Made by a program: the position numbers and the translations under genes. The notes below the pieces were generated by a model, which saw only the letters and a program-made list of their open reading frames with translations, was not told the DNA's origin and did no database searches. Source: Anaerolineae bacterium (GTDB taxonomy: Bacteria > Chloroflexota > Anaerolineae > CG2-30-64-16). From it: a stretch of 64,000 bases of DNA. Location of the stretch: contig JBBQRS010000012.1 of the NCBI GenBank assembly GCA_038214535.1, positions 517 to 64,516 on the forward strand, written 5' to 3'. Below are positions 20,542 to 22,032 of this stretch, in pieces. The number at the start of each line of letters is the position of its first letter. Positions within the stretch are counted from its first letter, which is position 1.

Positions 20542-22032
20542 ATGTTAGTTAACCCGCCCTCTCCCGATGGCGGCATCTGGATTCGTTCACAGCATCGGGT
20601 CGGCCGCCGCAGCCGCGAAAACATGATCTGGCCGCAAGTCAGTCTCGTGCAGTTGGCTGCGATCTTGTCGCCGGAGTACACGGTCGAGGTGGTGGACTGC
20701 ATCGCCACTCGCATGACGTGGCCCGAATTTGAAAAACTGATCGAAGAAAAGCGCCCGAAATATTATCTCACCCAGGTCACCGCGCCTACCCTCCGCAACG
20801 ACATGCACGGCATCTTCCTCGCCAAAGCGCTGGGGGCCAGAACGATGGCCTTCGGCACGCACGTCACACCGCTGACCCTGGAAACTATGCGTCCCTTCCC
20901 CGCGCTCGATTTCATCCTGCGGGGCGAGCCGGAGATGACCCTGCGCGAGTTGCTGGATACGCTGGAAGATAAAACACCCAGCAACTCGGCGGTCGCCAAA
21001 ATGCTCGCCGAAACCCGGCTGACGGATATTCCCTTCGCCAATGACGGCAAAGCCAGTCCCTACGCATCTATCGCCGGCCTGGCCTGGCGCGACGGTCAGG
21101 AGATCGTTCTGAACCCCGATCGGCCTTTCATCCCCGACCTGGATGACCTGCCCATGCCCAAACATGAATTGTTGCCGCTGAAAAAGCAGGTCATGCCGAT
21201 GATCAAAGGGCCGTTCACCTTCATCGTGACCAGCCGCGGCTGCACGGCGGGCTGCAAATATTGCATCAAGCACGTCAGCTATCAAAACAGCATCCGGCTG
21301 AGTTCCCCCGAAAAGATCGTCGCCGAGATCCAACGCCTGTCAGATCTGGGCATCCACAATATCCACATGTACGCCGATCTCTTCACCGTCAACCGCGAAC
21401 AGGTGATGGGAATCTGCGAAGGCATCATTTCGTCCGGCATCAACGTGAAGTGGACCTGCAACAGCCGCGTGGATTACGTAGACGAAGAGCTGCTCGCCAT
21501 GATGAGCAAGGCCGGCAACTGGCTCATCTCCTGGGGCATCGAGAGCGCCAACGAGCAAATTCTCAAGCGCGCGCGCAAAGGCTATAAGAAAGAACAAGCC
21601 TTCAAGGCGCTGCAATGGGCGCATGACGCCGGCATCAAGAATTGGGGCTACTTCATCATCGGCCTGCCCGGTGAAACCGAAGAAACCATCCAGGAGACGA
21701 TTGCCTACTCGAAAGAGCTGCCGCTGGATATCGCCCTGTTCCACATCGCCGCGCCCTACCCCGGCACGCCCTTCTTCTACGATGTGGTTGAGAACAACTG
21801 GTTCCGGCCCGGCACCAACTGGGAAGAAGTTGACATGGACAAATCCACCGTGTTGGATTATCCCGGTCTGCCGGCCGAGCGCCTGGAATACTGGCAAAAG
21901 CGCGCCACCAAGGAGTGGTCGTTCCGGCCCGGCCCGATGCTGACCTTTGTCAAAGGCCTTAACACCTGGGAAGGCTTCAAGAGCGGCGTCAGCGTCGCCT
22001 GGCAAACCCTGGGCTTCATTCGGGAAACTTGA
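20542..22032 (+). CDS. B12-binding domain radical SAM protein (class B rSAM, probable methyltransferase)
   Basis: N-terminal MLVNPP B12-domain signature and the CTAGCKYC (CX3CX2C) radical SAM motif. A GTG at 20359 is a possible alternative upstream start. Confidence 0.7.
   Translation: MLVNPPSPDGGIWIRSQHRVGRRSRENMIWPQVSLVQLAAILSPEYTVEVVDCIATRMTWPEFEKLIEEKRPKYYLTQVTAPTLRNDMHGIFLAKALGARTMAFGTHVTPLTLETMRPFPALDFILRGEPEMTLRELLDTLEDKTPSNSAVAKMLAETRLTDIPFANDGKASPYASIAGLAWRDGQEIVLNPDRPFIPDLDDLPMPKHELLPLKKQVMPMIKGPFTFIVTSRGCTAGCKYCIKHVSYQNSIRLSSPEKIVAEIQRLSDLGIHNIHMYADLFTVNREQVMGICEGIISSGINVKWTCNSRVDYVDEELLAMMSKAGNWLISWGIESANEQILKRARKGYKKEQAFKALQWAHDAGIKNWGYFIIGLPGETEETIQETIAYSKELPLDIALFHIAAPYPGTPFFYDVVENNWFRPGTNWEEVDMDKSTVLDYPGLPAERLEYWQKRATKEWSFRPGPMLTFVKGLNTWEGFKSGVSVAWQTLGFIRET

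Follow-up and report, generated by a model that had tools for sequence, protein, structure and literature searches.

HpnJ, a radical S-adenosylmethionine (SAM) enzyme, is proposed to act on lipid-linked glucosamine made by a family 2 glycosyltransferase (GT2), and Cds carries out similar chemistry on lipid-linked glucose (PMC13459092; PMC9204698). In similarity networks MoeK5, which methylates a carbon in the biosynthesis of moenomycin A, falls into one cluster with HpnJ (PMC9204698). AprD4, the radical SAM 1,2-diol dehydratase of apramycin biosynthesis (PDB 6FD2), acts on a soluble pseudodisaccharide and belongs to an antibiotic gene cluster; it does not bind cobalamin (PMC12931638). Here we analysed a stretch of 64,000 nucleotides from an Anaerolineae bacterium (contig JBBQRS010000012.1; hereafter the window), in which a gene at 20359-22032 of the plus strand encodes a radical SAM enzyme embedded in a glycan locus. 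The enzyme is tied by synteny to a polyprenyl-phosphate GT2 and an O-antigen-ligase-like gene, and because of this tie we consider, on balance, that it tailors the sugar carried by polyprenyl phosphate within a conserved module. The genes of this module in the window are as follows.

18190-18954, plus strand: left-handed beta-helix (LbH, hexapeptide) acyltransferase of about 254 amino acids (Pfam Hexapep).
19028-20242, plus strand: GT2 of the polyprenyl-phosphate sugar synthase type, about 404 amino acids from its likely start, with four C-terminal transmembrane helices (Pfam GT2; ArnC in the PDB).
20359-22032, plus strand: radical SAM enzyme, 557 amino acids, soluble (open reading frame, 100% match to the database protein P0001, GAGG-N6-GTG, structural model).
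22029-23828, plus strand: Wzy_C membrane protein with C-terminal TPR and a TTG start (Pfam Wzy_C at 64.6 bits, TPR, transmembrane scan).

These four genes, encoding the LbH sugar-O-acetyltransferase-like protein, the ArnC/GtrB-type GT2, the radical SAM enzyme and the Wzy_C/TPR protein, form a cassette of fixed order in which the genes overlap or abut; the stop codon of the radical SAM gene overlaps the TTG start of the Wzy_C gene as TTGA. Orthologs were found in 84 related loci, and neighbours were counted over those loci that had enough flanking DNA. Of the distant homologs, P0123, P0127 and P0135 lie on contigs too short to be informative. In 68 of 75 loci the gene immediately upstream, on the same strand, encoded the GT2, with a median identity of 62%, the hexapeptide acyltransferase lay upstream of the GT2 in 62 of 69 (median 70%), and the Wzy_C protein followed the radical SAM gene in 52 of 68 (30-45%). 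The earlier note had seen the gene between a polyprenyl-phosphate GT2 and an O-antigen-ligase-like gene in this single stretch, and these counts extend the association to the related loci. Unbiased clustering of the neighbouring open reading frames returned the same set together with a small protein of four transmembrane helices in 27 loci. The best models for this small protein are ArnE and ArnF, the subunits of the undecaprenyl-phosphate-aminoarabinose flippase, and its gene follows that of the Wzy_C protein, for example at 13604-13969 in locus L001 and at 13649-14017 in locus L004.

Both neighbours named in the earlier note were recovered by family matches. In the PDB, residues 9-311 of ArnC (9hwj) align to residues 61-371 of the GT2 reading frame (E 6.5e-20), followed by DPMS and GtrB, and with its four C-terminal transmembrane helices the GT2 belongs among the ArnC/DPMS/GtrB-type polyprenyl-phosphate sugar synthases. 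Its best NCBIfam models are AglJ, dolichyl-P-hexose transferase and ArnC; no equivalog cutoff was reached and HpnI gave no match. The GT2 is thus of the type that makes polyprenyl-monophosphate sugars and is likely the maker of the substrate of the radical SAM enzyme. The downstream protein, identified as O-antigen-ligase-like by its Wzy_C and TPR matches, has about 10 or more predicted transmembrane segments. The LbH protein is closest to maltose/galactoside/WcaF-type sugar O-acetyltransferases (PDB 3ect among the matches), and its likely start at 18190 was set by the lengths of its homologs, 251-270 amino acids.

The module resembles the Arn (ArnC-ArnE/F-ArnT) and Gtr/Gac systems in the type of its GT2, in the small flippase present at 27 related loci, in a cytoplasmic tailoring enzyme and in an adjoining polytopic membrane protein. 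It differs from them in that the membrane partner is a Wzy_C protein of the WaaL/Wzy family with TPR and not a GT-C transferase, and in that the tailoring enzyme is a radical SAM protein. In the literature that we could search, no paper linked a radical SAM enzyme in Anaerolineae to GtrB, to an O-antigen ligase or to sugars on polyprenyl or undecaprenyl phosphate.

Further downstream, two genes of an ABC exporter are encoded.

25539-26837, plus strand: open reading frame of the Wzm permease, whose true start is probably near 25.9-26.0 kb (Pfam).
26843-28129, plus strand: Wzt ATPase with a Wzt_C domain (Pfam, 33 bits against a cutoff of 30.4).

The earlier note had offered as an alternative that the enzyme makes a methyl cap recognised by the C-terminal domain of this Wzt. 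Such a methyl or other cap, placed on the non-reducing end of an ABC-exported glycan, would agree with the occurrence of Wzt with a Wzt_C domain in the window and at several related loci, including one with 45% identity; the cassette followed by Wzm/Wzt is indeed also found around the 45%-identical homolog P0125. Against this, no more than 18 of 50 loci have Wzm, and no more than 13 of 50 have Wzt, in the 8 kb downstream, while the GT2, LbH and Wzy_C genes are nearly constant, and Wzt is only 36-58% identical where the radical SAM enzyme is 62-82% identical. A cap read by Wzt must be added in the cytoplasm, as in E. coli O9a, whereas the monophosphate-lipid type of the GT2 and the frequent ArnE-like flippase imply delivery of the product outside the membrane. 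Wzm and Wzt are looser associates of the module, and we regard the cap as very improbable. For the reading in which the enzyme tailors a sugar held on polyprenyl phosphate, the constant partners are those of the cassette itself.

The radical SAM gene is enclosed by a plus-strand open reading frame at 20347-22032, and the earlier note had left its N-terminal boundary between GTG 20359 and ATG 20542. The evidence favours the GTG. In an alignment of eleven homologs, about 40 residues ahead of ATG 20542 (NLGTRRVPPLP.ARFPDAGAAVQTLTSSTRP.GSVD) are near-invariant, and the methionine of IMLVNPP is replaced by leucine in many of the same sequences. A GAGG element sits 6 bases 5' of the GTG (GAGG-N6-GTG, 20349-20361), and translation from there gives an exact copy of a public database entry, P0001, of 557 amino acids. 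The ATG, which would give a form of 496 amino acids, was thus ruled out by the conserved upstream residues, and the gene start is placed at GTG 20359. A scan for hydrophobic segments found none, so that the protein is predicted to be soluble with no transmembrane helix. Homologs number 5618 at E 1e-10 among the scored candidates, far beyond chance. An Rfam scan of the window found only three tRNAs, at 14483-14784, and no RNA element near the radical SAM gene. The parts of the protein, all on the plus strand, were delimited as follows.

20431-20529, plus strand: N-terminal peptide, residues 25-57 (invariant columns N29...D64 in the alignment of eleven homologs).
20530-20973, plus strand: Rossmann-like N-terminal domain, residues 58-205 (weak PF02310 match, secondary structure, alignment to class B structures).
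21223-21702, plus strand: radical SAM core, PF04055 (Pfam, 96.2 bits against a cutoff of 29.5).
21751-22029, plus strand: C-terminal region, residues about 465-557 (last elements of the TIM barrel, short strands and three helices at 506-555).

By motif, score and fold the gene product belongs to the radical SAM superfamily (PF04055). The MLVNPP segment of the N-terminal domain and the CTAGCKYC motif, both cited in the earlier note, are present; the latter is the [4Fe-4S] motif (C-x3-C-x2-C) at nucleotides 21241-21264, and its cysteines C295, C299 and C302 are at least 90% conserved in an alignment of 59 sequences (A2). An AlphaFold (AF2) model built on the 59-sequence alignment had a mean predicted local distance difference test score (pLDDT) of 88.8 and a predicted template modelling score (pTM) of 0.88, and was confident except at residues 1-55. 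When this model was compared with the PDB by Foldseek, AprD4 ranked first (E 7e-27, target TM-score 0.83-0.85, 22-23% identity), followed by MgmA/QCMT, TsrM, OxsB, CysS and TokK. AprD4 was also the closest solved structure by sequence (4.5e-26), and the family profile matched it over the full length at 7e-58. Because the model, the Foldseek ranks and the profile all match class B structures, the predicted architecture is the two-domain one of class B, with a Rossmann-like N-terminal domain, a radical SAM barrel and a helical C-terminus. Pfam, motif and model thus bear out the radical SAM enzyme of class-B architecture that the earlier note had proposed. The N-terminal domain was aligned to those of AprD4, QCMT, OxsB, TokK and TsrM, and it appears to be homologous to the cobalamin-binding domain of class B enzymes; it bears a long beta-hairpin insert (IWIRSQHRVGRRSRENMIWPQ) between beta1 and alpha1. 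The C-terminal region is rich in W and F and holds many invariant residues, and the alignment to the HpnJ model ends at model position 444 of 472. The N-terminal peptide (residues 25-57) is near-invariant in the Anaerolineae clade and has no counterpart in more distant homologs. It is predicted to be disordered, with pLDDT below 50 at residues 25-49, and it may serve as a docking motif for a membrane partner or as a lid on the active site.

The placement among curated families is less close. The best NCBIfam model is HpnJ (TIGR03471), at 195.1 bits against a cutoff of 577.6 and over residues 169-471 of the 496-residue form only. The next models are ApyD (140 bits), the cyclase BchE (140.3), AprD4 (116.7), the methyl-coenzyme M reductase (MCR) glutamine methylase (114) and PhpK (107), and HpnR reached 68.4 bits against 650. 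The listing showed 25 of 40 families, and HpnP, GenK and Fom3 did not appear in it, no search aimed at GenK or Fom3 having been made. Filing of the enzyme under HpnJ, BchE, AprD4 or HpnR was rejected, since every score lies far under its cutoff (481 for BchE, TIGR02026; 500 for the AprD4 family diol dehydratase, NF033070). Ten diverse relatives at 35-49% identity likewise reached no curated family cutoff. The earlier note had named as a refutation best matches from an unrelated pathway with another synteny, such as that of BchE; this is not what we found, and the window annotations contain no photosynthesis genes. BchE, MoeK5, Fom3, GenK and HpnP/HpnR share the overall architecture of the enzyme. 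They differ from it in that the canonical GG and GEGE motifs have become FG and GEPE in the enzyme, and in that its PF02310 match is below threshold.

A search for informative gene fusions showed that the long relatives are tandem radical SAM units or methyltransferase fusions. Four distant HpnJ/BchE-like proteins of 2096-2633 amino acids (P0148, P0150, P0177 and P0194) each gave 4-5 separate matches to the query, and four others of 926-1280 amino acids (P0156, P0190, P0230 and P0247) each carry two Radical_SAM stretches together with a B12-binding domain. In a metagenome protein of 633 amino acids (P0137), the C-terminal part of the radical SAM enzyme (93% identity) is joined to a Wzy_C domain; this may be a real fusion, a one-base error at the TTGA stop/start overlap or an assembly artefact.

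The ranking of HpnJ raises the question of whether the enzyme performs a reaction of the HpnJ/Cds kind, in which the pyranose ring of a lipid-linked hexose or hexosamine would be contracted or rearranged to a carbocycle (cyclitol). If so, the product would be a hydrolysis-resistant lipid head group and not a transferable sugar. HpnJ shares the two-domain class-B layout and a proposed lipid-anchored hexosamine substrate made by a GT2, and its model scores 55 bits above the next (195 against 140). In addition, distant homologs of the radical SAM enzyme, at 40% identity, adjoin a GT2 and an LPG_synthase_TM membrane protein, a setting which to us recalls the HpnI/HpnJ/HpnL arrangement, HpnL presumably being a member of the LPG_synthase_TM family. 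On the other side, the score is one third of the cutoff, the HpnJ alignment leaves out the N-terminal domain, and the HpnJ reaction itself is known from genetics only. The HpnJ route requires the deacetylase HpnK, while the cassette has an acetyltransferase instead; the GT2 is of the ArnC/GtrB type and not of the HpnI type, and the enzyme has the N-terminal conserved peptide and the beta-hairpin insert in addition. The hopanoid context of HpnJ is also missing: shc, hpnH, hpnI and hpnK were not seen among the neighbours in the window or at the 84 related loci, and the genes annotated from 8 to 57.5 kb of the window include no squalene-hopene cyclase or other hopanoid-pathway family. We consider a ring rearrangement unlikely.

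The question of cobalamin has to be considered separately from that of the fold. The earlier note had called the enzyme B12-binding, and of this the match to the class-B fold is clear and the domain call stays below threshold: PF02310 (B12-binding) aligned over positions 11-120 of 121 at only 16-18 bits (E 0.003-0.0095), against a cutoff of 32.1, and a precomputed PF02310 match was present in none of the 120 closest homologs. Precomputed matches do occur in P0125, P0128 and P0136, and other relatives from the same search score 73-101 bits. The structures of OxsB, TsrM and TokK define motifs for base-off cobalamin (PMC9204698): G-x-S/T-x-x follows beta3, beta4 carries a Gly-Gly pocket and alpha5 begins with G-E. 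In our enzyme the beta3 Ser is replaced by Gln. The beta4 segment reads AFGTHVT, compared with AGGPHV in TokK, so that one Gly of the pair and the His are kept, and alpha5 reads RGEPE, with both Glu kept and the second Gly of the canonical GEGE changed to Pro. In the 59-sequence alignment, which takes in HpnJ/BchE-like relatives of a kind with significant PF02310 matches, conservation reaches at least 90% for the Gly and His of G-x-H-x-T and for the two Glu of E-x-E. In AprD4 the corresponding positions read YAYTSIRS and LLPES, and both G-x-H-x-T and G-E-x-E are lost. The enzyme shares these motifs with relatives whose B12 domain is clear, and AprD4 lacks them; cobalamin use is therefore plausible, and we think it somewhat more probable than not that the enzyme binds cobalamin. 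The Rfam scan found no cobalamin riboswitch in the window, which says little for or against cobalamin use. The motif content of the enzyme lies between that of the cobalamin-free AprD4 and that of the canonical cobalamin enzymes, and the enzyme is for this reason of value in finding out what determines the use of cobalamin.

The same comparison bears on the view that the enzyme works without cobalamin in the manner of AprD4, with the N-terminal domain serving only substrate binding. The reaction would then be a 1,2-diol dehydration that yields a deoxy or keto sugar, an epimerisation or oxidation by a radical route, or another redox step. On sequence, profile and fold alike AprD4 is the closest solved protein, it takes an aminosugar as substrate, it has the same long insert between beta1 and alpha1, and PF02310 stays below threshold in the whole clade to which our enzyme belongs. 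Its identity is only 22-23%, however, and the NCBIfam AprD4 score is 117 against 500; our enzyme keeps the two motifs that AprD4 has lost, and being the closest solved structure is weak evidence where the PDB samples the cluster sparsely. A reductase partner like AprD3 is not conserved either, since downstream genes for short-chain dehydrogenases/reductases (SDR) recur in a minority of loci only. Such a redox step is a possibility that we would put well below an even chance.

From the gene, its fold, its family placement and its synteny, we infer the following substrate, chemistry and product fate. The GT2 would load a monosaccharide on polyprenyl phosphate at the cytoplasmic face of the membrane. 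The radical SAM enzyme would cleave SAM at its CX3CX2C cluster, take a hydrogen from an unactivated carbon and then modify that carbon, its target being the lipid-held sugar or its nucleotide precursor, still at the cytoplasmic face. After flipping, the modified product would serve the Wzy_C/TPR protein outside the membrane, and the end product may be a glycan or glycolipid conserved on the surface of Anaerolineae. Cobalamin-mediated C-methylation appears to be the likeliest single chemistry, which we put forward tentatively and at somewhat less than an even chance. It is favoured because methylation is the commonest activity of the fold, because the cobalamin-type motifs are kept and because MoeK5, whose substrate we take to be a lipid-phospho-linked sugar, offers a precedent. 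According to a 2026 review, members that methylate cannot be distinguished by their sequence from those that do not (PMC12931638). The synteny supports the general idea of the earlier note, namely that of a class-B-type radical SAM enzyme in a glycan pathway which tailors a sugar or a lipid carrier.

Several points weigh against this picture. The enzyme reaches no curated family cutoff and has no characterised ortholog, and the substrate is read solely from gene order. A few orthologs, those of loci L081 and L084, have no GT2 and LbH neighbours. The ArnE-like flippase gene gave no tblastn match anywhere in the window. PF02310 is below threshold in the enzyme and in its clade, and the closest solved structure, AprD4, is free of cobalamin (PMC12931638), so cobalamin methyl transfer may be impossible. 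Finally, the hand-off to the Wzy_C protein is uncertain, because known proteins of the Wzy_C family use diphosphate-linked donors and not the monophosphate sugars expected from the GT2; the Wzy_C partner could instead use the modified lipid as the acceptor of a ligation and not as a donor.

The substrate might also be other than a sugar: the enzyme could modify the polyprenyl carrier, or else act on a peptide or protein, as with ApyD, an enzyme acting on ribosomally synthesised and post-translationally modified peptides (RiPPs). ApyD is the second-best NCBIfam model at 140 bits, and class-B-like radical SAM enzymes do modify isoprenoid lipids, as HpnP/HpnR and the glycerol dialkyl glycerol tetraether (GDGT) enzymes show (PMC13459092). 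Nevertheless, none of the recurrent neighbours returned by the unbiased clustering was a precursor-peptide or RiPP gene, and the constant partners are all glycan enzymes, which leaves a non-sugar substrate rather improbable.

The distribution of the enzyme was examined with one genome per species. A relative is encoded in 401 genomes, of which the 80 best were inspected, and almost all of these 80 are Chloroflexota of the Anaerolineae lineage, including Anaerolineales, Caldilineales, Ardenticatenales, Thermoflexus and Ca. Amarolinea. Across these orders the orthologs are 62-82% identical, whereas the Wzy_C, Wzm and Wzt proteins of the same loci are only 30-67% identical. The radical SAM gene is thus among the most conserved genes of its locus and no variable decoration, and in being so widespread and so well conserved it differs from the many orphan radical SAM genes of variable glycan loci. 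The two orthologs that stand without the GT2 and LbH genes are 62-63% identical; the contig of L084 is labelled Candidatus Margulisiibacteriota and has Wzm/Wzt nearby on the opposite strand. These exceptions could be due to horizontal transfer or mis-binning.

Taken by its sequence, the enzyme appears to belong to a new subfamily, with about 400 species genomes, class-B architecture and neither a curated model nor a characterised or structurally solved member, and its cassette to be a new variant of the polyprenyl-phosphate sugar module, not a new kind of system. The close association of a radical SAM enzyme with a GT2 of the polyprenyl-phosphate kind, an acetyltransferase and a WaaL/Wzy-like protein implies radical tailoring of a lipid-carried sugar, and no such combination was described in the literature that we could search. 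Wastewater sludge, sediments and hot springs harbour Anaerolineae in abundance. For the layers that Chloroflexota have outside the peptidoglycan, 'polysaccharides or proteins' have been suggested as constituents (PMC13319060); the module is a candidate for a conserved outer-envelope component of this phylum. A bolder view is that the cassette builds a new lipid anchor, in which the hexose added by the GT2 would undergo an HpnJ/Cds-like ring contraction, or a different radical rearrangement, to a non-hydrolysable head group, onto which the WaaL-like Wzy_C/TPR protein would, once the lipid is flipped, ligate the ABC-exported polysaccharide. Were it true, it would mean anchoring of a lipoglycan in the manner of lipopolysaccharide in Chloroflexota, which lack an outer membrane, and might account for the outer layers seen in the envelope of these filamentous bacteria, but we hold it to be a long shot.

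Other features of the window were also recorded. The three tRNA genes at 14483-14784 are on the minus strand, and the plus-strand open reading frame at 14498-15226 is probably spurious because it overlies them. The open reading frames at 14958-16334 and 16039-17688 gave no Pfam match; the former recurs upstream of the cassette in three loci (L017, L019 and L044) at 47-56% identity. At 29073-30500 lies a gene for a BNR/sialidase-like beta-propeller protein with hydrophobic segments at both ends, which recurs downstream of the cassette in several loci at 22-28% identity (within 8 kb in 7 of 50) and may be an extracellular glycan-processing enzyme. A separate polysaccharide set of the Wzy type occupies 33165-50571, with several GT4 genes and an acyltransferase_3 gene, and it contains a second Wzy_C gene at 38510-39940, the gene for an initiating transferase of the Bac_transf family at 43561-45063 and that for a kinase of the Wzz/GNVR/ParA type at 48919-50571, so that ABC-dependent and Wzy-dependent routes appear side by side in the window. 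At 53152-54345 (plus strand) the window encodes another radical SAM protein, which carries a SPASM domain and is unrelated to the first. Its gene lies downstream of that for a VWA-domain protein (50863-52314) and directly upstream of that for a gingipain-like Peptidase_C25 of 1061 amino acids (54351-57536), and these three genes may form a set for peptide or protein maturation.

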